Sequence record: PZ338878.1
Strand: one strand, 5' to 3'
Length of the DNA: 64,000 nt
DNA from: a phage
How positions within the stretch are numbered: the stretch's first letter is position 1; every line of letters begins with the position of its first letter. A program made the position numbers and the translations under genes. The notes under the pieces are model-generated. The model was not told where the DNA came from. It did not search any database and was given only the letters and a program-made list of their open reading frames with translations. Below, in pieces: positions 53,871 through 64,000 of the stretch.

Positions 53871-54443
53871 TTATTTGCTAATGCTTTGAATTTTATTTAC
53901 AACACGGTTTATTGCCAGTGAAGCCCTAGGCTCTGCAATACCTGTTGCATAGATATAAGGATGACCTTTTGGAGACTCCCTCATACCGAATGAACCTAAT
54001 TCTAAACCATATTCATCCTCTACGTCAACCCCAATATTAGTGGGTACTAAATATGTTTTAACTCCATAATAAGTAGAGAAGAAACAGCGCATAGCGTTAG
54101 CATACTCTTCAATTGTAGCATCAGGGTAGAACTCAATCAACTCCAATTTCAAGAAAATATTAAAATGAGTATCATCTAAATTTTCTTCTGTACGGTAACA
54201 TGGTGTTAGTGCCATATACGGATTACCTGCTGCAAATTCAAAACCATCCTTCTCCATTTGCAGGAAAGATTGTTCTGCACTAGCTACATAGTATTTACCG
54301 TTAGGATGCCCTAATGGGCGATCCTCTTTATTTTCTGGTAATGTGTACGCCAGTATATCAGCATCCACGAGATATGGAACTTCTAACATTTGTGCAAATC
54401 GACCATAGTAATCAATAGCTTGAGCTATTACTGCAACATTCAT
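53871..54443 (-). CDS. hypothetical protein, possibly class II aminoacyl-tRNA-synthetase-like core
   Basis: MALTPCYRTEEN...FLKLELIEF weakly resembles class II aaRS motif 2; only 190 aa. Confidence 0.35.
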   Translation of the reverse strand: MNVAVIAQAIDYYGRFAQMLEVPYLVDADILAYTLPENKEDRPLGHPNGKYYVASAEQSFLQMEKDGFEFAAGNPYMALTPCYRTEENLDDTHFNIFLKLELIEFYPDATIEEYANAMRCFFSTYYGVKTYLVPTNIGVDVEDEYGLELGSFGMRESPKGHPYIYATGIAEPRASLAINRVVNKIQSISK

Positions 54444-54691
54444 GATCGACCTCCGCTGCGGAATGCACGTTTAGTAATGTTTGACATAGTGATCAAATCT
54501 TGAAGCGTCATATCAGGAAAATGCTGTTCAAGAACACCTTCAACAGCGCCTACAATATCTGATAACTCAATAAGTTGCATCAGCTTGCAATCTTGATCAA
54601 TAGCATCTTGAAGTTCATAAAGCTCTTCTTGAATCTTAGCAACAGAACCATATTCCTCTTTACTAATCTCCTTCAAATGATACCCTGCCAC
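54440..54691 (-). CDS. MazG-like nucleotide pyrophosphohydrolase (small all-alpha)
   Basis: EELYELQDAI and ELSDIVGAVEGVLEQ resemble MazG/HisE-type motifs. Confidence 0.45.
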   Translation of the reverse strand: MAGYHLKEISKEEYGSVAKIQEELYELQDAIDQDCKLMQLIELSDIVGAVEGVLEQHFPDMTLQDLITMSNITKRAFRSGGRS

Positions 54692-54701
54692 TTTAACCCC
54701 C

Positions 54702-57476
54702 TTAGTTTACCAGTTTATTTATGTCTGGTAAAAGATTTATTTCACCTAAAAAATCACCTTCACCTTCCTCTAGCCAACTCTCATATGCTTGTGCATGATT
54801 ATAGTTACCATCAAAAGAATCTGCAACAAATTTTTCTACAGTTTTTCGAGATGTGCCAGCGCCAAATACACCAAGTTTAATACCATTGATCGGTAAAGTA
54901 GGGCTTGTTGGTACTTTCTCTGTTGCAACACGGTTGATATCTATAATCTCTTGTACAGTTGTATTCCATTGTAAGCATTTAACACAACGGGTATGCGCTA
55001 CATACAGTAAGTTTCGCTCTGCCTCTTCTAGTCCTACCCATTCACCAGTCTTTTTATCATAGTTGGAAGGAAAATCATTAGCAACAATAACCTGATCCCA
55101 CTCCAAACCTTTAGACTTATGTGCTGTAGTCAGTGTGACTTTTGCTGTAGGAGAATTTCTATGCGTTCTAAGTGTATGTGCTATAGTGTTTGCCTTGCCA
55201 GAAACTACGATGTTTAACAAGCGTTTAGCATCTGGATCAGCCTCTGCACACTCAACAAATTCATTCCAGTCTGCGTAAGGTAATACAGTTTCATGTTTTA
55301 CTTTCTCAATATCCCCTCTCCGAAGAGCATTAACACTATCCACCATAGAGATAAAATCCCTGGTATCTACGTTAATAATAATTTCTTCCCCATCTGCAAT
55401 ACGATCCATTGCCTCCATAAGCAAGGTTAAATTCTTGCGAAAGATGATAGTGTAAGGTTTTGTATAGTCTACAACATCTGATTTGTAGCTACCTACTACA
55501 GTATCAAAGCCTTTACCAACCAAAGGATGACGCAAAGGTTCTTTATCACTTAAAATCATATTCGCAATGTTTGCCACTTTGGGGCCAAAACGGAAGCAAG
55601 CAGTTAATGGAAGCTCTGCCCCATACTTAGCTGTTTCAATCATCATATTAGAGCTACCTCTAAATTGATAAATGCAGTTGTGGCTAAGAATTTCATTGCC
55701 AAAAAAGTTAGCAGTATCTTCTACTTCAATATCATAATAGATACCCTCACTATCTACAATGTCCACAATCTCTTCTGCCGTTACAGTATCACCATCTTTT
55801 ACTAACACAGACATGCCTTTAAACAAACCCGCTGCCGGAATTAAATTATATTTGGGAGTGTTCACAGAGGACATGCATTCTTTTAAAGATGCAAACGGAA
55901 CTATTTCAAGGATCTTTTGTGCAAAACTCAATGCTTCACGATAAGAATTGAAATATTTACGTACACGGTAACGACCTTCCAATTTAGCAACACTTACGCT
56001 TACACCTGCTTCAATGAGTGAGGCATAGATTGGCATTTCACTTTCTGTCCACTCAAAGCTAACTTGTGTTCCTTTACAACCTTGTGCTCGCAAAGTCACT
56101 GTTAACATTTTTCTTGCATCTACTGCACAATTGATGCTGTGCCAATGTGGATAAGCAAAATGATAGTCTTTATCCTCTAAAAGTTTAAAACCATTTTGTC
56201 CGAATTGTTCAAAGATATTGTTGATCCTTTCTTGATTAATACCGCGTGAACTTGCTTCAAATACACAAGTAGGAATGCCATATTGTAAACTGTATGCCAT
56301 TTCTTTTTCCATAGCAGCTTCACGGTTTTCAACAATATCCAACACCCACAACTTCTGTGCTTTTTCAGAACGTGTACGTTGCCCCAGTTTAGAAAAACCT
56401 TCTTTATCATCGAATTTGTTAGTGATCCCTACTCGGAAACCTAAATCTTTTCTCCACATTAGGTATACCACCATCTGATCATCTTTCAGAACATAAGGTG
56501 AAGCCCAAATACGATGGTTATGTGTCATATCTAAAGTCTTACCTTTAGCAGTAATAATATTCCTACCTTTTGTACGTGTAGATAAAGTCTTATTTGTTAC
56601 TTTTCTAAATGTAACTTTACCGTTAGAATAAGACTCTACCTTATCACCGATTTGCAGGTCTTTCATTGTAACCTGACCATTTTCGGTATTAAGTACCGTG
56701 TTTTCTGACACACATTGGAATTCATCACCAACTACCACAATTTGTTTGGCAGATTTAGCATTCCGCAGAATAGACAAGAATGCAGGGTTAACATCCTGGA
56801 ATTCATCCCCAAAAATAATGTCATAACCAAGATCAGCACCAGACAATTCAAACAATTTTACATAGGTGTCATGCGTCATCAAAGTATCTGTGTTAGGATC
56901 AATGCGCTCTCGCCACAATTGTTTTGCATACTTAACTACTTCTGTAATTAGTTTGTGTTCGTTAATACCTTTTCTTTTAATATCTGCAAGATGTACACCA
57001 GGAAAATGTTTACGGCTGATAAAAGGATCATCCGAAAATTCAAACTTACCTACGGTTTGCTTGATCATTAAACCAATCATAGCACGAGTTAAAAGTGTTT
57101 TCCCTCGTTTATCAATAAGATTATTAATCTTAAATTTCTTTGCTATCTCACTACCTGTACCTGCAACGTTAACATACTGTCCTTCTGGTCGTGACAGTTT
57201 TGCACGTAAACGATGATCCAGGAATTGATAGCAAATGGAATGCAATGTACGGCATTCTACATTTGGTGGCATCTTACGCCGTGCTTCTTCTGCCATGCTT
57301 TTATTGAAAGCTAAGTAAAGAATGCGATCTTCTGTACTGTTAGCCAGCAAATAAAGTGTTGACGTTTTTCCTGATCCAGATTTAGCTTGGATAGTTAAAA
57401 ACCGATGATCTGGAAAAGCCTCCTTAATAGCTGTTTGCTCTTCTGTTGGAGTAAAACTCAACTCTTTCTTAGCCAT
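54702..57476 (-). CDS. UvrD/Rep-like superfamily I DNA helicase containing an intein
   Basis: ORF-track 54702-57515, start at ATG 57476; Walker A AKSGSGKTST, motif II GDEFQD, motif III split by insertion (VVVGDEFQ | intein | CIYQFRGSS). Confidence 0.75.
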   Translation of the reverse strand: MAKKELSFTPTEEQTAIKEAFPDHRFLTIQAKSGSGKTSTLYLLANSTEDRILYLAFNKSMAEEARRKMPPNVECRTLHSICYQFLDHRLRAKLSRPEGQYVNVAGTGSEIAKKFKINNLIDKRGKTLLTRAMIGLMIKQTVGKFEFSDDPFISRKHFPGVHLADIKRKGINEHKLITEVVKYAKQLWRERIDPNTDTLMTHDTYVKLFELSGADLGYDIIFGDEFQDVNPAFLSILRNAKSAKQIVVVGDEFQCVSENTVLNTENGQVTMKDLQIGDKVESYSNGKVTFRKVTNKTLSTRTKGRNIITAKGKTLDMTHNHRIWASPYVLKDDQMVVYLMWRKDLGFRVGITNKFDDKEGFSKLGQRTRSEKAQKLWVLDIVENREAAMEKEMAYSLQYGIPTCVFEASSRGINQERINNIFEQFGQNGFKLLEDKDYHFAYPHWHSINCAVDARKMLTVTLRAQGCKGTQVSFEWTESEMPIYASLIEAGVSVSVAKLEGRYRVRKYFNSYREALSFAQKILEIVPFASLKECMSSVNTPKYNLIPAAGLFKGMSVLVKDGDTVTAEEIVDIVDSEGIYYDIEVEDTANFFGNEILSHNCIYQFRGSSNMMIETAKYGAELPLTACFRFGPKVANIANMILSDKEPLRHPLVGKGFDTVVGSYKSDVVDYTKPYTIIFRKNLTLLMEAMDRIADGEEIIINVDTRDFISMVDSVNALRRGDIEKVKHETVLPYADWNEFVECAEADPDAKRLLNIVVSGKANTIAHTLRTHRNSPTAKVTLTTAHKSKGLEWDQVIVANDFPSNYDKKTGEWVGLEEAERNLLYVAHTRCVKCLQWNTTVQEIIDINRVATEKVPTSPTLPINGIKLGVFGAGTSRKTVEKFVADSFDGNYNHAQAYESWLEEGEGDFLGEINLLPDINKLVN
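55677..56714 (-). mobile_element. intein (about 346 aa) inserted in helicase motif III
   Basis: Begins with Cys after DEFQ (CVSENTVLNTENGQVTMKDLQIGDKV), ends ...FGNEILSHN followed by +1 Cys; codons checked at both junctions. Confidence 0.65.
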
Positions 57477-57477
57477 T

Positions 57478-57954
57478 TCAACCTCTCTTAATTTGTTTAA
57501 CAAGCATAGGAACAAAATCTCGTTTTAAAATTTGTTCAATAATATGATCAGGTAGCTGTTGGAAATTATAATTAAATGCTACTGTCTCACCTTTAGGTGT
57601 TTCTACCCGCACATATAGCATGTTACGAAGTTTATCCACTTGTGCTGTATATTCTAAACCACGTAATTGATGCATTGCAAACATCAAATCATCAGTTTCA
57701 GTTTGGAATCTATCCCTTGTTTGCATCAAGGATAAGGCAAAAGGTAGATTTTCCCTAAGAGCCACCTTCTTAGGCACTAATGAAGGGAAATACTCCCCAA
57801 TAACTTCCTGTGTAAGCTGAATACACTCTTTTTCAAGCTGGTTTTGTTCCTTGAGTTCACAAACACTTTTTTGTAAAGTGTTAACCTCTTTTTGCAAAGC
57901 TGCTAGTTGAGTATTTAACTTTCTTTTTTGATTACGACCAAAACGTTTAGACAT
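57478..57954 (-). CDS. hypothetical coiled-coil protein
   Basis: 158 aa; basic N-terminus and coiled coil. Confidence 0.45.
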   Translation of the reverse strand: MSKRFGRNQKRKLNTQLAALQKEVNTLQKSVCELKEQNQLEKECIQLTQEVIGEYFPSLVPKKVALRENLPFALSLMQTRDRFQTETDDLMFAMHQLRGLEYTAQVDKLRNMLYVRVETPKGETVAFNYNFQQLPDHIIEQILKRDFVPMLVKQIKRG

Positions 57955-57962
57955 ATCTCCCC

Positions 57963-58478
57963 CTAGTAAAACCCCTTAACAATTTGTATTAACTCGGCAC
58001 AACGGTTGACCAACTTTTCATCGTACAATACACGTTGTGGCATATGTTGTATAATATACTCCATTTGCTCATGCCATGTCCACTTTTCTTTTTTGTCTGG
58101 GATAACATCACTAGCACGAGAATTATCTTTTAATGTTTGTATAATCCAATTGCTTGGAAAGTGCTCTCCACCTTTCTTAAATGGTTTATAGTGGCCTAGA
58201 GTGAATTGAGAATCCCCTGTTAGAGCACCCAATTTATTTAGATGGATAATCAAACTACGAAACACGTAGTATTCATAGATGTTATCCACCGTATAGCAAG
58301 CATAATATTTCAAGATGCCCTTATCTCGCGGATACTTACCAACATCCAGATTACACCAGTTGACATTTTCTGGATCATAGTTGTGTTCCTTAAGCCATAT
58401 TTCTCTTTCATCAAAGTCTGGGTATATTACCGCCCTGCTTACAGAGTCAACAAGTGGAGATTGAGCATCAAAAAACAT
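57963..58478 (-). CDS. hypothetical protein
   Basis: 171 aa. Confidence 0.45.
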   Translation of the reverse strand: MFFDAQSPLVDSVSRAVIYPDFDEREIWLKEHNYDPENVNWCNLDVGKYPRDKGILKYYACYTVDNIYEYYVFRSLIIHLNKLGALTGDSQFTLGHYKPFKKGGEHFPSNWIIQTLKDNSRASDVIPDKKEKWTWHEQMEYIIQHMPQRVLYDEKLVNRCAELIQIVKGFY

Positions 58479-58499
58479 TATATTTTCCTTATTGGTTTA

Positions 58500-58940
58500 T
58501 TAAACGTTTTCTAAATCTTTTAAGGCATTACCCAACGTTAGAACAATAACATCGTTTGCTGCCTCTTCCCCATTGATATTGGTGAAATTTGGTGTGACAA
58601 AAGTAACCATATAAAACTCGTCCACCTGGAAGACAGCAATAACACCGTCCATCTTAACATCTTGACGAAAGGAAAAACCAATCATCTTCTCTTGCAAAGG
58701 CATATCCCCTTCCTTCATTACTGCCAGGGAGTTTTCAGGAATGTTATATTTATCTGCTCCGATGTAGATGTACGTAATGTTATCTTTATCGTGATGATAC
58801 AGGGTTGCTTTTTCCATATCTAAACCTGACAGATCAAATACGTTAATTTCTTGTGTAGTCTTCATAAATATCCTCCCAAATCCAATAATCATCTGTGTAA
58901 GTAGGATGCCTTTTATCCCACTCTGTTCTAGCCCAAGCAA
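58500..58940 (-). CDS. hypothetical protein
   Basis: ORF-track coordinates; true start probably an internal Met (MKTTQEIN...) after GGAGG. Confidence 0.4.
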   Translation of the reverse strand: MLGLEQSGIKGILLTQMIIGFGRIFMKTTQEINVFDLSGLDMEKATLYHHDKDNITYIYIGADKYNIPENSLAVMKEGDMPLQEKMIGFSFRQDVKMDGVIAVFQVDEFYMVTFVTPNFTNINGEEAANDVIVLTLGNALKDLENV

Positions 58941-59229
58941 CCGCTGCTACCAACACATCACCATGACAAGGTTGAGGTGAGCAGAAGCAAACTAAGTCTT
59001 TCCCTTCTAATTCTAACAAATCTTCAAGAGTGATTTTACCACAACGAATTTGTTCCCACAACCACTCTTTATATCTTTGTATAGTTGATCCTCGTGGTTC
59101 ATCATCCTTTAACTTAAAAGGATTTGCAAACTTTGAGGCTTTTAACCCCATATGAGGCATAGCTCTGCCAATGTACACTGCACCTTCAGGTATTACTTTA
59201 CCTAAATGGTAGAAATTTAATACTTTCAT
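58843..59229 (-). CDS. DUF4326-like protein
   Basis: ORF-track 58843-59253 trimmed to internal Met; GAVYIGRAMP...SKFANPF...GKDLVCFCSPQPCHGDVL recalled as DUF4326-type signature. Confidence 0.4.
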   Translation of the reverse strand: MKVLNFYHLGKVIPEGAVYIGRAMPHMGLKASKFANPFKLKDDEPRGSTIQRYKEWLWEQIRCGKITLEDLLELEGKDLVCFCSPQPCHGDVLVAAVAWARTEWDKRHPTYTDDYWIWEDIYEDYTRN

Positions 59230-59230
59230 A

Positions 59231-59581
59231 TTAACCCAAACACATCTGTGCAATCAAGCCCTGTATAAATTTATTAGCTTCTTTACTGTCGTAATCAGTT
59301 TCTTCTGGATATCCATCTTCATCGTACACAACTGTACCTTCAATATACCCTGCCTCAATTAAGGCACGGATCATATCAAATTGCCAGCATGAGTTACCAA
59401 ATGGACGTTTACCATTAAAACACTCTTCTTCTCTCCATAACGTAGAGAGTAGTTGTCGGAAATATTCCCGTACAGTGACAGTACCAAGATCTGAATCCTC
59501 AAACATAACATCCAGGGCATCAGGATTGCTTTTCTCTACATAAGGAATATATTTAACACCATTAATAGTTACATCAAGCAT
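59231..59581 (-). CDS. hypothetical protein
   Basis: 116 aa acidic ORF. Confidence 0.45.
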   Translation of the reverse strand: MLDVTINGVKYIPYVEKSNPDALDVMFEDSDLGTVTVREYFRQLLSTLWREEECFNGKRPFGNSCWQFDMIRALIEAGYIEGTVVYDEDGYPEETDYDSKEANKFIQGLIAQMCLG

Positions 59582-59944
59582 TTATTTCTCCTTATCATCA
59601 TATTCTAGGAACATATCTGCACGATATGCTTTACGCTCTTCAAACTTAGCAGGATCTACAACAATAAGCAATACAAGGTTAACATCTAAATACTTCTTAA
59701 CAAATAGAAATAAATCTTTTCCACAGTTAAAACCTACACCAGTATAGGCATCCCCATATTGATCTACTGATTTAATCTTCTTACTAACCGTACATTCTAT
59801 GCTATTCTTTTCTTCTTGGTATAAGGCTTTCCCACCCCAATATGTAAAGAATTTAGTACCGTCAGCACCAAGTTTAAAACCTTCTGTTGCATGTCCAGCA
59901 AATGAAAGTAAACATAACCAAGTGATCATCAGGTACTTTAGCAT
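59582..59944 (-). CDS. secreted/periplasmic protein
   Basis: ORF-track 59582-59998 trimmed to internal Met; signal-peptide-like MLKYLMITWLCLLSFAGHA-TEG. Confidence 0.45.
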   Translation of the reverse strand: MLKYLMITWLCLLSFAGHATEGFKLGADGTKFFTYWGGKALYQEEKNSIECTVSKKIKSVDQYGDAYTGVGFNCGKDLFLFVKKYLDVNLVLLIVVDPAKFEERKAYRADMFLEYDDKEK

Positions 59945-59945
59945 T

Positions 59946-60428
59946 TTAACCACCCAATTGCAAATGTTTAGAAAGAACAATATCCCACTGATCACCACAA
60001 CCGTTATCTATGCGGAACATAATGTACGTATCATCTTCTTCTACAACATATAACACCTCATAGGAATTACAACAGCCTTCCCAATTTTTAACAGCCTCTG
60101 GTGTATCATGTGTAAAAATTTCATTACCATCATACGACCAAAACAAAGGGGTGAGGTTTTCGAAGGTCAGTGAAGTAGGGTTCACTTCATCTTTAACTGC
60201 TTCCTCATACTCCTTATGCGTTTGTACTGCTTTAGTTAGTGTACTCATGTCTATCTCCTTTTCTCCTTCTTGACTATGGAGGATAGCGAACTCTCTAAAC
60301 TCCACTTCACGCCATGTTTTTAAGTAGTGCTTTATAATTTTATCAACATCTGCCTGTTCAACATTACTTTTCAAGCAATAGTAATCATGGTCTTCGCCCA
60401 TTCTACCCCATATGCTATACCTTGTCAT
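59946..60428 (-). CDS. hypothetical protein
   Basis: 160 aa. Confidence 0.45.
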   Translation of the reverse strand: MTRYSIWGRMGEDHDYYCLKSNVEQADVDKIIKHYLKTWREVEFREFAILHSQEGEKEIDMSTLTKAVQTHKEYEEAVKDEVNPTSLTFENLTPLFWSYDGNEIFTHDTPEAVKNWEGCCNSYEVLYVVEEDDTYIMFRIDNGCGDQWDIVLSKHLQLGG

Positions 60429-60696
60429 CTGATTGATCCTTTACATTGCTCTTGGTATACACAGGAATAACATCGTCGTGATCTTTATTACTTTCATCTG
60501 TTAAAGCCCAAAACAACTTACCTGCTGGATGTTTAAAGATGTAGGCAATAGGTTCCTCTTCCTGTGCTTCTTTGCTACGGATACCATCCCGCCAGGCAAG
60601 CCAAGTGTAGATCATCACTTCTTGACGTTCTTCTTCGTTAGGCCACATATGTGGTGGGAAGGTTTTATCAAACCATTGCTTAAATTCTTCGGTCAT
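60415..60696 (-). CDS. hypothetical protein
   Basis: 93 aa. Confidence 0.4.
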   Translation of the reverse strand: MTEEFKQWFDKTFPPHMWPNEEERQEVMIYTWLAWRDGIRSKEAQEEEPIAYIFKHPAGKLFWALTDESNKDHDDVIPVYTKSNVKDQSDDKV

Positions 60697-60931
60697 AATC
60701 TACTCCTTAACGTACAAAGTTAACCTCTGCTTCTTTCAGCTTTGACACTTCTACATAACCACCATGATCATCTTTAATCCATTCTTTTCCTTTACGGATG
60801 ATAACAGGGTATGTAGAGTGAGTAAGTTTAGGTACAGATCTTTTTGTTTTAGTGATAGAAATGTTTTGCATAGTAGTCTCCTTAGTAAATTTTACATAGA
60901 GTCTAGATTATTTAGTAGATAGAGTCAATAA

Positions 60932-61198
60932 CTAATTACTGTTAGATCTGTATTCTGTCTTCCATTCACAATGGTAAACTTCAACAGGTTCTAACTTCCA
61001 GTGTTCAGGAACTAATTCAGGGCAATATCTACAAAAGAGAAATAGATAGATAATTAAGACAGGTATTAAATAGTAAAATGGTATACGATCATAACCATAC
61101 TTACGAGATAACATGTAGACATATAGATAGGGTATAACAATTAATCCTATAACTATAAGTAAGAAGAGAAGTATAAACCTTAGTGTAGTAACATCCAT
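60932..61198 (-). CDS. small membrane protein (two TM helices)
   Basis: 88 aa; LRFILLFLLIVIGLIVIPYLYVYM and IPFYYLIPVLIIYLFLF. Confidence 0.45.
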   Translation of the reverse strand: MDVTTLRFILLFLLIVIGLIVIPYLYVYMLSRKYGYDRIPFYYLIPVLIIYLFLFCRYCPELVPEHWKLEPVEVYHCEWKTEYRSNSN

Positions 61199-61237
61199 AG
61201 TATTCTCCTATACAGTAATATACTCTGTTCCTGCCCC

Positions 61238-61266
61238 TCCATGAGTGGCAGGAACAATATCTATAG
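61238..61266 (-). promoter_or_regulatory. perfect 9-bp stem hairpin in intergenic region
   Basis: GTTCCTGCC-(11 nt)-GGCAGGAAC in the 164-bp gap between two minus-strand genes; no U-tract. Confidence 0.3.
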
Positions 61267-61362
61267 AGAATACTAACTCGCTTCGCTCGTCACCTTTCAG
61301 GTTTAGGGTAGCATGTTTTTCTGAAAAAGTCAATACTCTCCACAAAACTTTACAAAATACTT

Positions 61363-61635
61363 TTACATAGGTACAACAGAGTCTGTTTTGAAGTCGTACA
61401 TATGATTTACACCTGTGATTTTTGACATAGAGATTGCACGTTTAACACCTGCAATTACCTGGTCTGTCTTCTTAATCTCTTCACGGAACTTACGTACAGT
61501 TAGAGAGAAGAAACGATGATCCATCCATTGACGGTTAACACGATCACGTTTGAAGTGACGGAAATCTTCAATCTGTCTGTTACGCAAACGGCGCAGTACA
61601 TATAATAATTCATAGTAAGGGTGTTTATTTTTCAT
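61363..61635 (-). CDS. hypothetical basic protein
   Basis: 90 aa, Arg/Lys-rich. Confidence 0.4.
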   Translation of the reverse strand: MKNKHPYYELLYVLRRLRNRQIEDFRHFKRDRVNRQWMDHRFFSLTVRKFREEIKKTDQVIAGVKRAISMSKITGVNHMYDFKTDSVVPM

Positions 61636-61638
61636 AAT

Positions 61639-62067
61639 TTATTCTCCAAATCGAAAATCGTCAATATCATCAAACCATACACAATGGCGAGTCCTTTCTT
61701 TTTCTGTTGCAGACATTGTTTCAACAGCTTTAGGACTAAGCACAACAGGAATGTAACGAACAGGTCGTTCATAATAGTAGCCATACTTTTCTGTATTAGC
61801 TGCCTCAAAGACTTTACGGCGTTCTTCAAGATCTTCTATGGTGAATCCTACCATATAACCATCATGTTTGCTACCCCATCCTTCCTCACTTTCAACAATC
61901 GGGATATAAAAGCCGTTACGCGTCCCTGACGCTGGTTTTTCTTGAGCCTGAAGGCAAGCCTCCCATCCTGCTTTAAAGACGTTATAGAGCGATTTACGCA
62001 CGTTATGAGTGCCGCTTTCGCTTGCTGGATAGATTTCATTAAACTTGTCTTGGATTTGTTGTGTCAT
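61639..62067 (-). CDS. hypothetical protein
   Basis: 142 aa. Confidence 0.45.
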   Translation of the reverse strand: MTQQIQDKFNEIYPASESGTHNVRKSLYNVFKAGWEACLQAQEKPASGTRNGFYIPIVESEEGWGSKHDGYMVGFTIEDLEERRKVFEAANTEKYGYYYERPVRYIPVVLSPKAVETMSATEKERTRHCVWFDDIDDFRFGE

Positions 62068-62210
62068 ACCCGCCCCTTAGTGATTATTTGACCAGCTAAA
62101 CAAATAGCTTGTAGTACAATAAAGAAGTAGCCTAATTTTACACTACCCAATACCCAGAATGCAATGTTTGCAAACAAACAAAAAGCAATATTAAGTCTAA
62201 AGAATAACAT

Positions 62211-62477
62211 TTAATCCCCTTCATATTTAGGTAAAGGCATATATGCCACAATAGGAGGGTAATCAAAGTGAAAATGATGGTTCACCACAATAATCTTACC
62301 AGACATACTTTTATGCACTTCACAATACCCTTTTCCACCATCTTCCATTACCACCACATACTCACCTAGTGGGATATCGTATGGATCTTCTACTTTTACC
62401 CATTCTGTCATTTTGTAAACTCCTCGTAGTAAGGTAAAGCCTTGATCAGTTGTTCTGAAGTGCCATTTTGCACCCAC
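62211..62477 (-). CDS. hypothetical protein
   Basis: 88 aa. Confidence 0.4.
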   Translation of the reverse strand: MGAKWHFRTTDQGFTLLRGVYKMTEWVKVEDPYDIPLGEYVVVMEDGGKGYCEVHKSMSGKIIVVNHHFHFDYPPIVAYMPLPKYEGD

Positions 62478-62575
62478 GTAACACCATTGTCAACAGAAAC
62501 ATACCCTTTTTTGTCAATAAATTTACGCAGACAGCCAGTGAACTTATTTTTGTAGATAACCATCTTTACTCCTTG

Positions 62576-62929
62576 TTACATCCACAGGTTATGAAAATAC
62601 TTAGCAAATAAAATGCGACCTTCTAAACGATCTTGCCGCTGTTTTTCATTAACTTCTTCTGGTGGAGTTGAGTCCTTAAAAGAAGACTCCATTTTTTCAA
62701 GAATTTCTAACCAGTGTTCTGCTGCTCGTTCTTCCATATAAGGTAGATAGTCACCTTTAGCGTGTGGGTACATCCGACGAAGTAACCCACTAGGAATTTT
62801 AACATTGTTTGTGGCTATCACTTTTGCACGATACGCAGAAAGTGCATTGTAGATCAGTTTACTTAGTGTCACATCCAGATCAAGAAGATCACTCTCTTCA
62901 AATTGAATTTCATCGTGTACAATTTTCAT
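62576..62929 (-). CDS. hypothetical protein
   Basis: 117 aa. Confidence 0.45.
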   Translation of the reverse strand: MKIVHDEIQFEESDLLDLDVTLSKLIYNALSAYRAKVIATNNVKIPSGLLRRMYPHAKGDYLPYMEERAAEHWLEILEKMESSFKDSTPPEEVNEKQRQDRLEGRILFAKYFHNLWM

Positions 62930-63213
62930 CGTGCCTTCTCCCGATCTGCATCTAATTTCAACAAGAAAGCTGTATACTCTTCCGAACCTTGGTGTAAAAA
63001 CATGTGATAAGAGCTTACCAGTTTCTTCGTTGTCGTATAACGTTCCATTTCCCCAACAACACCTCCACCTAGTGTGTAGAGCACAATACCTTCAACTCCA
63101 ACATAGTTTACTACTTCAACCAAGTCTGTGTTATCCCAATAGTAGTTAGGTGACACAATAAGATCGCCCACTGCCAGTTTAATGTTTGCTACTTCGTCTT
63201 GTGAATAATACAT
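62926..63213 (-). CDS. hypothetical protein
   Basis: 95 aa; ATGA-type overlap with downstream gene. Confidence 0.45.
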   Translation of the reverse strand: MYYSQDEVANIKLAVGDLIVSPNYYWDNTDLVEVVNYVGVEGIVLYTLGGGVVGEMERYTTTKKLVSSYHMFLHQGSEEYTAFLLKLDADREKAR

Positions 63214-63225
63214 TTGGTTCTCCTC

Positions 63226-63519
63226 TCACATTAAGACACGTTTTGTGTTGATGGGTGCATTATCAAACATGTTAAGAACATTATCAAGCAGTTTTACTAA
63301 TTCATTTGTAATTTGTTCCCTTGAACGGGAGGAAGTGAGCACTTTGCTTTCACCAACAATATGCATAACTTTTATAGGAGCGTCTAAAATGATGTTGTGC
63401 TGATGATCCTCTTCAAAAGAAGCCAACCATTTCTCATTGTTACCGTGCAAGGCTACAATCACACCAAAACCGTTAATTGTTTCAGAAATATTCTTAGTTG
63501 CTAAAGTAATGTTCATCAT
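63226..63519 (-). CDS. hypothetical protein (promoter-proximal gene of the minus-strand early operon)
   Basis: 97 aa; first ORF downstream of the divergent intergenic region. Confidence 0.45.
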   Translation of the reverse strand: MMNITLATKNISETINGFGVIVALHGNNEKWLASFEEDHQHNIILDAPIKVMHIVGESKVLTSSRSREQITNELVKLLDNVLNMFDNAPINTKRVLM

Positions 63520-63575
63520 CTACCTCTTTTGTTACGATACACACAGAGTACCAGAAACTAATTTCAGATCAAGTA

Positions 63576-63603
63576 TTGACATACTGTTTTATTGTGCTAA
63601 TCT
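63576..63603 (+). promoter_or_regulatory. sigma70-like promoter candidate in divergent intergenic region
   Basis: TTGACA at 63576-63581, 16 nt spacer, TGcTAATCT extended -10-like, upstream of the AGAGGAG RBS and ATG at 63636. Confidence 0.3.
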
Positions 63604-63635
63604 TAATGCATACACAAATGAGAGGAGATAAACGA

Positions 63636-64000
63636 ATGCAAAACACCGATCTGACTTGGGTAGAAGCCAAAGAAGCAATGTTAAAAGGCAAACGTGTTAA
63701 ACATAAATACTTTTGCGAAGGGGAATGGTTTGAAATGCGTAACCGATCCCTTGTAGACGAAAAAGGAAATAACATGGAACAATGGTTCAAAAATGAAATT
63801 TGGCAGGGAACAGGTTGGTCTATAGTTGAAGATCAGCCTAGCTCAAGCGCACTGTTTAGCCCTATTATGTATCGCGTCATCGGTGCTTTAGTTGTTGATC
63901 ACGGAATTGCAGTGGAAAAAGAATGCTGGGAAGAGGTATCTTTTTTCAACCTGGCTTCTTATGCAAAAAGCCATATGCACTTGTTTGAAGAAGGTGATGA
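63636..64000 (+). CDS. hypothetical protein (5' portion; continues beyond window)
   Basis: ATG at 63636 8 nt after AGAGGAG; open to window end (MQNTDLTWVEAKEAMLKGKRVKHKYF...); absent from ORF track because no stop in window. Confidence 0.45.
   Translation, partial: MQNTDLTWVEAKEAMLKGKRVKHKYFCEGEWFEMRNRSLVDEKGNNMEQWFKNEIWQGTGWSIVEDQPSSSALFSPIMYRVIGALVVDHGIAVEKECWEEVSFFNLASYAKSHMHLFEEGD

Follow-up and report, generated by a model that had tools for sequence, protein, structure and literature searches.

A mosaic block of small genes behind promoter-like motifs in a phi92-like phage

What does a dense run of small genes at the head of a long gene series contribute to a phage, and does it constitute one system or a collection of independent genes? 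The question is raised by positions 57478-63519 of a 64,000-nucleotide stretch of phage DNA (sequence record PZ338878.1; hereafter the window), where an earlier note had described a minus-strand block of about fourteen small promoter-proximal open reading frames (ORFs) with no recognisable homology and had pointed to it as the most likely place in the window for undescribed inhibitors. The reading preferred here, to which we assign a probability of roughly 0.6, is that the block forms the accessory section nearest the promoter in the leftward early/replication transcription unit of a virulent phi92-like myovirus, and that it is a mosaic of single-gene modules. The evidence for this reading lies in the packing of the genes, the variation of their content among close relatives and a set of promoter-like motifs.

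Extent, packing and mosaicism of the block

The two ends of the block coincide exactly with gene boundaries, as the earlier note had placed them, with the start codon of the first small gene at 63519 and the stop of the last at 57478. The block is flanked on one side by an intein-containing UvrD-type helicase gene and on the other by an intergenic region that faces oppositely oriented genes. Its proposed position in a minus-strand operon was also borne out, since it lies directly downstream of a back-to-back promoter-like region and heads a same-strand gene run of ~38 kb (63519 to ~25915) that continues into helicase and ribonucleotide-reductase genes. Along its entire length, a 6.2-kb stretch displays 98.9% nucleotide identity to Escherichia phage JohannJBalmer (Bas62 of the BASEL collection, genus Justusliebigvirus) and 95.8% identity to the type phage phi92 (NC_023693; genus Justusliebigvirus, subfamily Stephanstirmvirinae). 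The blocks of phi92, Bas62 (bas62_0081-0099), Bas60 and BME3 resemble that of the window in gene order and ORF calls, at 95.8-98.9% identity over the 6.2 kb. Nucleotide matches were found in 129 phage records, 50 of which align at a single place with 80% or more of the query; the block is therefore already present in public databases and is not new.

The count of about fourteen ORFs proved too low, as the JohannJBalmer record, like those of more than 100 relatives, annotates 19 consecutive ORFs across the block, all termed "hypothetical protein", with phi92 counterparts within gp199-gp216. Eighteen of the 19 are probably credible as genes (Table 1), the exception being a 45-residue ORF with a TTG start at 61208-61345. 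The genes are separated by -23 to +21 nucleotides (nt), apart from a single gap of 60 nt, and seven overlaps are observed, in agreement with the description of the block as tightly coupled; ribosome-binding sites precede most of them. The encoded proteins are frequently acidic or basic, as had been stated, with an isoelectric point (pI) below 5 in six and above 9 in five. The secreted protein (SignalP probability of 0.998 in the phi92 record) and the protein with two transmembrane (TM) segments were both recovered, and the earlier note had not listed a second membrane protein of 48 residues, whose 19-residue Kyte-Doolittle mean is at least 1.6 across nearly its entire length.

Mosaicism was assessed with a tblastn matrix against seven related loci and with annotated records. 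Counterparts of 12 of the 19 ORFs are present in Phapecoctavirus tuntematon at 40-97% identity, and seven are genus-specific. Phage muut lacks the secreted protein and the 116-residue protein and has a truncated DUF4326 gene, a disruption that affects a stretch of three genes. The region 62411-62576 is a hotspot of gain and loss where the window carries one gene of 51 codons, PaulScherrer four small ORFs and muut six, which leaves PaulScherrer with three additional ORFs (locus L004, 6509-7381) and muut with five (locus L006, 5426-7639); gene content at 62.4-62.6 kb thus differs among phi92-like isolates. The muut hotspot includes a 332-residue ORF (VOG6430).

Rearrangement extends to the head of the block. 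In PD06 (locus L005, 9146-10099) the intergenic promoter region, the DUF7325 gene and the gene for the 117-residue protein, which correspond to 62576-63636 of the window, are inverted onto the other strand, and in tuntematon (locus L007, 10997-12587) the inverted segment comprises the tudor gene as well. As a consequence, these genes head the opposite transcription unit in the two phages. A single DUF7325 copy per record is present in 136 phage records, virtually all of which are phi92/phAPEC8-like (Stephanstirmvirinae-type), and the DUF7325 alleles fall into two classes that are ~65% identical. The window allele is of the Phapecoctavirus type (97%) and shares only ~65% identity with its counterpart in most phages of the same genus as the window; the first genes of the window, Bas62 and BME3 share this allele, which is ~65-69% identical to those of phi92, PaulScherrer, PD06 and muut. 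The promoter-proximal 0.7 kb displays 91-94% nucleotide identity with three Phapecoctavirus records. The allele of the first gene has been exchanged between genera. Small, tightly packed genes behind promoter-like motifs, with a content that varies among close relatives, are what an early host-takeover or accessory cluster presents, and the comparisons fit a block that behaves as an accessory, mosaic region.

Several records assigned to other hosts also match the block. They include the GenBank "Campylobacter phage" records A110a, B15, A145, C15 and A147 (pieces at ~95-96% nucleotide identity, or ~91-96% protein identity) and single "Acinetobacter", "Pseudomonas" and "Serratia" phage records, some at lower identity. 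The host labels look doubtful, at least for the Campylobacter phage records.

Promoter-like sites and the proposed transcription unit

The intergenic region at the head of the block comprises 116 nt and contains two candidate promoters whose -35 boxes are arranged back to back. Two further promoter-like sites were identified within the block, at ~61.3 and ~60.9 kb (Table 1). The pattern TTGACW-N16/17-TANNCT occurs four times in the 64 kb of the window against 1.17 expected, and three of 100 shuffled sequences reach four. Three of the four occurrences are located in non-coding gaps of the block, within a 3-kb stretch, and are oriented the right way. As motif evidence only, this arrangement is consistent with several promoters recognised by host RNA polymerase. 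The leftward candidate at the block head keeps its -35 box and spacing in the inverted cassettes of PD06 and tuntematon, and tuntematon has a better -10 box, TATCAT.

The site at ~61.3 kb lies within a stretch of unusual properties, 61199-61362, which folds with a minimum free energy of -53.2 kcal/mol against -33.9 +/- 3.5 for shuffled sequences (z = -5.5). It contains a hairpin (61226-61256) with 14-nt arms that are 93% complementary and have a perfect 9-bp core, and only one site is variable across seven genomes. No Rfam match was obtained for this stretch. The 45-residue ORF annotated here probably represents regulatory RNA or DNA and not a gene, since a ribosome-binding site is lacking and its span takes in both a promoter-like motif and RNA that folds strongly. 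The element may combine an internal promoter with a structured leader; alternatively, RNA may be processed there.

If the block is the accessory head of the leftward unit, host sigma-70 RNA polymerase would start at the back-to-back promoter pair (~63.55-63.60 kb), with further starts at the two internal sites, and would transcribe the ~18 closely spaced small genes ahead of those for the helicase, ribonucleotide reductase and replication. The block would then consist of independently exchanged single-gene modules and not of a single system, each product probably acting alone on a host or phage target. The three envelope proteins (secreted, two-TM and 48-residue hydrophobic) could alter the envelope, for example in superinfection exclusion, while the DUF4326 protein would be an enzyme that processes ADP-ribose- or NAD-derived nucleotides and the most plausible counter-defence gene. 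The HNH-like protein, encoded near the helicase, would act on DNA, and some dozen further small proteins, acidic or basic, would have host proteins or nucleic acids as binding partners.

Several observations weigh against this reading. The divergent promoter region described in the earlier note stands as sequence motifs on both strands, with a weak leftward member that falls below the threshold of a generic consensus scanner and whose -10 box matches the consensus at three of six positions. The literature yielded no transcriptome of a phi92-like or phAPEC8-like phage, and we therefore infer early timing from position and promoter-like motifs alone. Five genes, encoding the 171-, 121-, 116- and 51-residue proteins and the DUF4326 protein, are conserved beyond the subfamily and may be more "core" than "accessory". 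Finally, no block protein with an experimentally characterised relative was found in the family searches.

Table 1. Coordinates of the genes and candidate regulatory elements of the block. Positions refer to the window; aa, amino acids; GRAVY, grand average of hydropathy.
Feature	Position (strand)	Description	Matches and remarks
Candidate rightward promoter	63576..63603 (+)	TTGACA-N16-TAATCT	TG just before
Candidate leftward promoter	63572-63545 (-)	TTGATC-N16-TACTCT	~25 nt upstream of gene 1 ribosome-binding site
Gene 1	63226..63519 (-)	97 aa, DUF7325, promoter-proximal	Pfam PF24011, 82.7 bits vs cut-off 27
Gene 2	62926..63213 (-)	95 aa, acidic, Phage_tudor domain	Pfam PF24144, 85.5 bits vs cut-off 27
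Gene 3	62576..62929 (-)	117 aa	phrog_16602; tuntematon homologue 55% identical; accompanies DUF7325 in inverted cassette
Gene 4	62408..62563 (-)	51 aa, basic, within gain/loss hotspot	phrog_2381; 55-62% identical homologues in jumbo and Klebsiella phages
Gene 5	62211..62411 (-)	66 aa, acidic	phrog_7252; similarity to rV5 gp198 (phi92 record); V18 homologue
Gene 6	62064..62210 (-)	48 aa, wholly hydrophobic small membrane protein	GRAVY 1.45; phrog_27111; genus-specific
Gene 7	61639..62067 (-)	142 aa, restricted to genus	
Gene 8	61363..61635 (-)	90 aa, strongly basic, pI 10.5	tuntematon homologue 40% identical
Internal promoter-like site	61333-61305 (-)	TTGACT-N17-TACCCT	inside the 61199-61362 stretch
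Probable regulatory stretch	61199..61362 (-)	164 nt	several records annotate a 41-45 aa ORF
Gene 9	60932..61198 (-)	88 aa, two-TM membrane protein	TM-like segments 9-27, 38-63; genus-specific
Internal promoter-like site	60900..60928 (-)	TTGACT-N17-TAGACT	inside the only long (60-nt) intergenic gap
Gene 10	60707..60871 (-)	54 aa, basic	phrog_10388; all 6 variable codons synonymous
Gene 11	60415..60696 (-)	93 aa, acidic	C-terminal module common to temperate phages
Gene 12	59946..60428 (-)	160 aa, very acidic, net charge -17	phrog_2381 (N-terminal) and phrog_7812 (C-terminal)
Gene 13	59582..59953 (-)	120-123 aa, secreted; signal peptide, predicted cleavage after AGHA	SignalP in phi92 record; phrog_5474; missing in muut
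Gene 14	59231..59581 (-)	116 aa, acidic	large phage family, loop motif GKRPFGNSxW
Gene 15	58843..59229 (-)	128 aa, DUF4326 domain	Pfam PF14216
Gene 16	58500..58865 (-)	121 aa, acidic, pI 4.3	phrog_8284; ~33% identical homologues in rV5-like phages
Gene 17	57963..58478 (-)	171 aa	HNH-like motif H96-x2-P-x3-GG-x5-N110-x8-N119
Gene 18	57478..57954 (-)	158 aa, basic, N-terminal coiled coil, adjoins UvrD helicase gene start	phrog_20923; genus-specific

Family relationships and counter-defence candidates

The statement that the block has no recognisable homology held in part. Three proteins, those carrying DUF7325, Phage_tudor and DUF4326, pass Pfam gathering thresholds, and 18 of the 19 ORFs match PHROG families; none of these families has a demonstrated function, and no best-scoring PHROG has an assigned one. 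Functional PHROG labels were found only among secondary matches of the DUF4326 protein. Searches of the block ORFs against NCBIfam, PADLOC (a library of defence-system proteins, not of anti-defence proteins) and PDB sequences returned zero matches, and a literature search found no published work mentioning the locus tags of the block.

The DUF4326 protein scores 77.3 bits against the PF14216 model (cut-off 25; E = 1.4e-21), and all 45 aligned homologues, which are 41-84% identical to it, also match this family. Invariant positions in the alignment are N5, G21, N36, L74 and C81-x-C83-x4-C88-H89, with R22 and P37-F38 nearly so, and the residues of the family motifs (VLN, IGR, NPF and C-x-C-x4-CH-G-D) are present in the window protein. 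The AlphaFold2 model is confident (predicted local distance difference test score, pLDDT, of 91.4), and its neighbours in a library of viral structures are DUF4326 proteins from phages, archaeal viruses and giant viruses. The window protein thus shares the family score, the invariant residues and a confident model with the DUF4326 proteins of other viruses. In some viral neighbours the domain is joined to DUF2493/SLOG or to "NADAR with protein tyrosine phosphatase", and one bacterial homologue is a SLOG/DprA-DUF4326 fusion; the same fusions were noted earlier by Aravind's group (PMC9503650). Iyer, Burroughs and Aravind predicted DUF4326 to be a domain of the rhodanese-phosphatase superfamily that acts on terminal phosphates of ADP-ribose derivatives (PMC9503650, PMC7824862). 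In the EVADES survey, giant-virus homologues of the validated anti-Avs protein ORF83 bear a C-terminal DUF4326; no other family of the block is mentioned there, and DUF4326 appears as a fusion partner only.

A canonical C-X5-R phosphatase site appears to be absent from the DUF4326 protein, because the loop following C81 is of variable length and contains no arginine. A zinc site is an equally possible role for the C-x-C...C-H cluster. The best fold matches of the model in the PDB are NADAR enzymes, at weak similarity; no sequence or profile similarity to NADAR proteins was found, as hhalign against E. coli YbiA gave a probability of 0.3% and Pfam NADAR matched none of the 45 members. RefSeq records (NC_023693, NC_052653, NC_052655 and others) and PHROG 24867 label the protein "ribonucleotide reductase NrdA-like" or "ribonucleoside-diphosphate reductase 1 alpha subunit". 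This identity was rejected, since a reductase domain is missing from the 128-residue protein; the name is an artefact that seems to derive from the T4 locus name nrdA.1. On the family relationships described above, the DUF4326 protein appears to be the best single candidate for a counter-defence enzyme in the block.

The protein of 116 residues encoded directly upstream belongs to a large family. An exhaustive HMMER search recovered 1,514 cluster representatives (clusters at 50% identity) at E <=1e-3, and 620 at E <=1e-10. They share a domain of ~90 residues in which the loop GKRPFGNSxW carries an invariant F...G-N-x-x-W (F55, G62, N63 and W66). No Pfam family was matched by the window protein or by the shared domain, while three of 50 members each had one unrelated match, and the sole PHROG common to the family has no assigned function. 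Members are present in 188 viral contigs, which differ widely in size, and in genomes of Actinomycetota, Proteobacteria, Bacteroidota, Firmicutes and others, where the copies are presumably prophage genes. A functional pair with DUF4326 was considered and rejected: a DUF4326 gene lies within 4 kb at three of 80 viral loci, all three Stephanstirmvirinae-type, and the viral loci examined revealed no recurrent neighbour of the 116-residue gene. The protein resembles the sponges Tad1, Tad2 and Acb2 in being small (~100 residues), standalone and distributed among phages of many host phyla, with an invariant basic/aromatic loop. This is an analogy only, and unlike what a sponge would lead one to expect, infection by Bas60 does not prevent accumulation of cyclic GMP-AMP (cGAMP). 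That the protein binds a small molecule or another protein is speculation.

These two proteins bring into focus the alternative that the block is an anti-defence island, with undescribed inhibitors of restriction-modification (RM), clustered regularly interspaced short palindromic repeats (CRISPR), the cyclic-oligonucleotide-based antiphage signalling system (CBASS), Thoeris or similar systems that would be expressed first to disarm the host. Promoter-proximal position, small charged proteins and strong gene flux are typical of known anti-defence loci, and DUF4326 is tied by domain fusion to NAD/ADP-ribose-processing domains and to the anti-Avs ORF83 family. The acidic 142- and 121-residue proteins have as many non-synonymous as synonymous variable codons (synonymous:non-synonymous 9:10 and 6:10, respectively), and the proteins of the 116-residue family are small, phage-associated and spread over many phyla, as are known signal sponges. 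Published phenotypes of the phage group point the other way. Toward RM systems, phages of the phi92 type have been described as "exceptionally susceptible" (PMC8594841). Type I CBASS restricts Bas60, and cGAMP builds up in the course of infection (10.1101/2025.07.12.664507). KpAvs2 restricts Bas60-62 by sensing Ksap2 (Bas60_220), which is encoded outside the block (PMC11564622), ARMADA II, plasmid-expressed Zorya II and, more weakly, Druantia III restrict Bas61/62 (PMC13463889), and DRT10 protects against Stephanstirmvirinae. There is accordingly no phage-wide resistance to RM or CBASS, and these phenotypes argue against broad inhibitors in the block.

The library searches and gene neighbourhoods also count against the anti-defence alternative. 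PADLOC gave no match, with the scope of that library as stated above, and the names of anti-defence families (Ocr, ArdA, Acb, Tad, Gad, Had and AdfA) did not appear in the Pfam, NCBIfam, PHROG or PADLOC results, none of which is an anti-defence library. The 116-residue gene is unlinked to DUF4326 outside the subfamily, and the counter-defence candidates reported by others for the genus, Atd1 (a MazG-like (p)ppGpp pyrophosphatase) and a NADAR protein, were not placed within the block. Atd1 was described in Justusliebigvirus as a MazG-like anti-TIR protein by the AntiDefenseFinder authors. It may correspond to an 83-residue gene at 54440-54691 (-), beyond the block on the far side of the helicase gene, which displays a MazG-like E-x2-E...E-x2-D pattern and whose counterpart, phi92 gp197, is annotated with a MazG-type fold; this gene had no match in Pfam, NCBIfam or PADLOC. 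A tblastn search of the window with E. coli YbiA found no NADAR gene. An anti-defence role is thus plausible in kind, unproven, and partly contradicted for RM and cGAMP-CBASS, and we consider it a possible but on balance unlikely description of the block as a whole.

A narrower proposal, that one block protein founds a new counter-defence family, is doubtful and has, in our estimate, a small chance of being correct. Its leading candidates are the standalone DUF4326 protein, which could destroy an immune signal derived from ADP-ribose or reverse an ADP-ribose modification, and the 116-residue GKRPFGNSxW protein, which could be a binder of a small molecule or a protein. Should some gene of the block prove to be an inhibitor, the anti-defence catalogue would be extended for therapeutically attractive phages of very broad host range (phi92-like, BASEL Bas60-62).

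Replication neighbours, coding evidence and early gene clusters

Near the helicase end of the block, the 171-residue protein carries an HNH-like motif. Across 15 homologues, FTLGH-[YH]-x-PF-[KR]-[KR]-GG-x-HFP-x-NW-x-I...N is strictly or almost strictly conserved, which yields the residue pattern listed for gene 17 in Table 1, a spacing that we take to be that of the HNH core. In the AlphaFold2 model (pLDDT of 80.6) the motif residues occupy an element comprising a strand, a loop, a strand and a short helix. The protein may thereby resemble HNH (His-Me finger) nucleases in both H-x2-P-x3-GG-x5-N-x8-N and the predicted strand-loop-strand-helix arrangement, and the phi92 record annotates the 171-residue counterpart with an "HNH endonuclease-like fold". 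Homologues of 37-45% identity are found in Felix O1-like and other myoviruses, a wider distribution than that of most genes in the block.

The UvrD/Rep-type helicase gene directly downstream (54702-57476, minus strand) is interrupted by an intein (Pfam Intein_splicing, Hint), which measures 1,041 nt (~347 residues) in the Bas62 record. The helicase genes of BME3 and tuntematon are shorter and apparently intein-free.

The position of the block next to these genes raises the alternative that most of it serves as auxiliary housekeeping for the replication/nucleotide-metabolism module that follows, supplying a nuclease, helicase partners and nucleotide-pool enzymes. The block is co-oriented and contiguous with the UvrD helicase and ribonucleotide-reductase genes, the gene for the 158-residue protein adjoins the helicase start, the HNH-like protein is conserved in Felix O1-like myoviruses, and the 12 ORFs with tuntematon counterparts are common across the subfamily. 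The RefSeq "NrdA-like" label, which would point in the same direction, is the naming artefact described above. Several genes are missing or truncated in natural isolates and seven are genus-specific, membrane and secreted proteins are a poor fit to a replication role, and no replication-protein family was matched by the block ORFs in Pfam or NCBIfam. We therefore judge a general housekeeping role improbable and retain the accessory reading, within which the HNH-like protein is accommodated as one module among others.

Matches to phrog_2381 were obtained with the 51-residue protein (E = 9e-12) and with the N-terminal 46 residues of the 160-residue protein (E = 1e-17). The two are not claimed to be paralogues, as BLASTP reveals no pairwise similarity; they are either very divergent paralogues or members of a heterogeneous PHROG. 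Within the gene for the 93-residue protein, ~105 nt (60457-60562) are 78-80% identical to Stx1/2-converting prophages, P7 upf89.5 and a Salmonella phage "EaA" gene, a module that is thus common to a virulent myovirus and temperate phages. The DUF551/EaA label given to this gene in other records was not adopted, since no Pfam family is matched at E <=0.1 and the ~105-nt module constitutes the only link. The 142-residue protein has one full-length cluster of homologues at 90% identity and two of partial length among 5.8 billion proteins. No counterpart of the Phage_tudor gene was detected by tblastn at the PD06 and muut loci, and the Pfam matches of the 158-residue protein are weak coiled-coil ones only.

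Considered as a set, the ORFs of the block are coding sequence under purifying selection. Variable sites, counted in three to seven Justusliebigvirus genomes per gene, are distributed over codon positions 1, 2 and 3 as 56, 30 and 178, and the ORFs are regarded as truly coding because variation concentrates at the third position. Single genes are rich in synonymous changes as well, with synonymous to non-synonymous variable codons of 6:0 in the 54-residue, 10:0 in the 116-residue and 26:7 in the 160-residue gene. These counts, together with the PHROG matches of 18 of the 19 ORFs and the ribosome-binding sites ahead of most of them, make it very improbable that a substantial fraction of the ORFs is non-functional (over-called frames, decaying remnants or regulatory RNA), a view favoured by the 45-residue TTG ORF described above, by the flag "weak prodigal statistics" on phi92 gp215 (at the coordinates of the homologue of gene 2) and by the length of several ORFs, just 48-66 residues.

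Overall, the block is an ordinary accessory region, probably early, whose sequence had been deposited before, and the practical value of the analysis is one of triage: the gene count has been corrected, one probably spurious ORF removed, the "NrdA-like" misannotation flagged, broad activity against RM and cGAMP-CBASS noted as excluded by published phenotypes, and two candidates, DUF4326 and GKRPFGNSxW, singled out from 19. Gene structure, coding character, family memberships, mosaicism and the promoter-like motifs are observed directly, whereas the timing and every function proposed here are ones that we infer. Early host-takeover or accessory clusters of virulent phages include the host-takeover module of SPO1, the pre-early region of T5, the class I genes of T7 and the immediate-early small ORFs of T4. 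The block differs from them in that no sequence relationship was found. The likeness is one of organisation, with many small, packed genes behind host-type promoters, internal promoters and lineage-restricted proteins at the head of an early transcription unit, the promoters and the unit being putative in the block.

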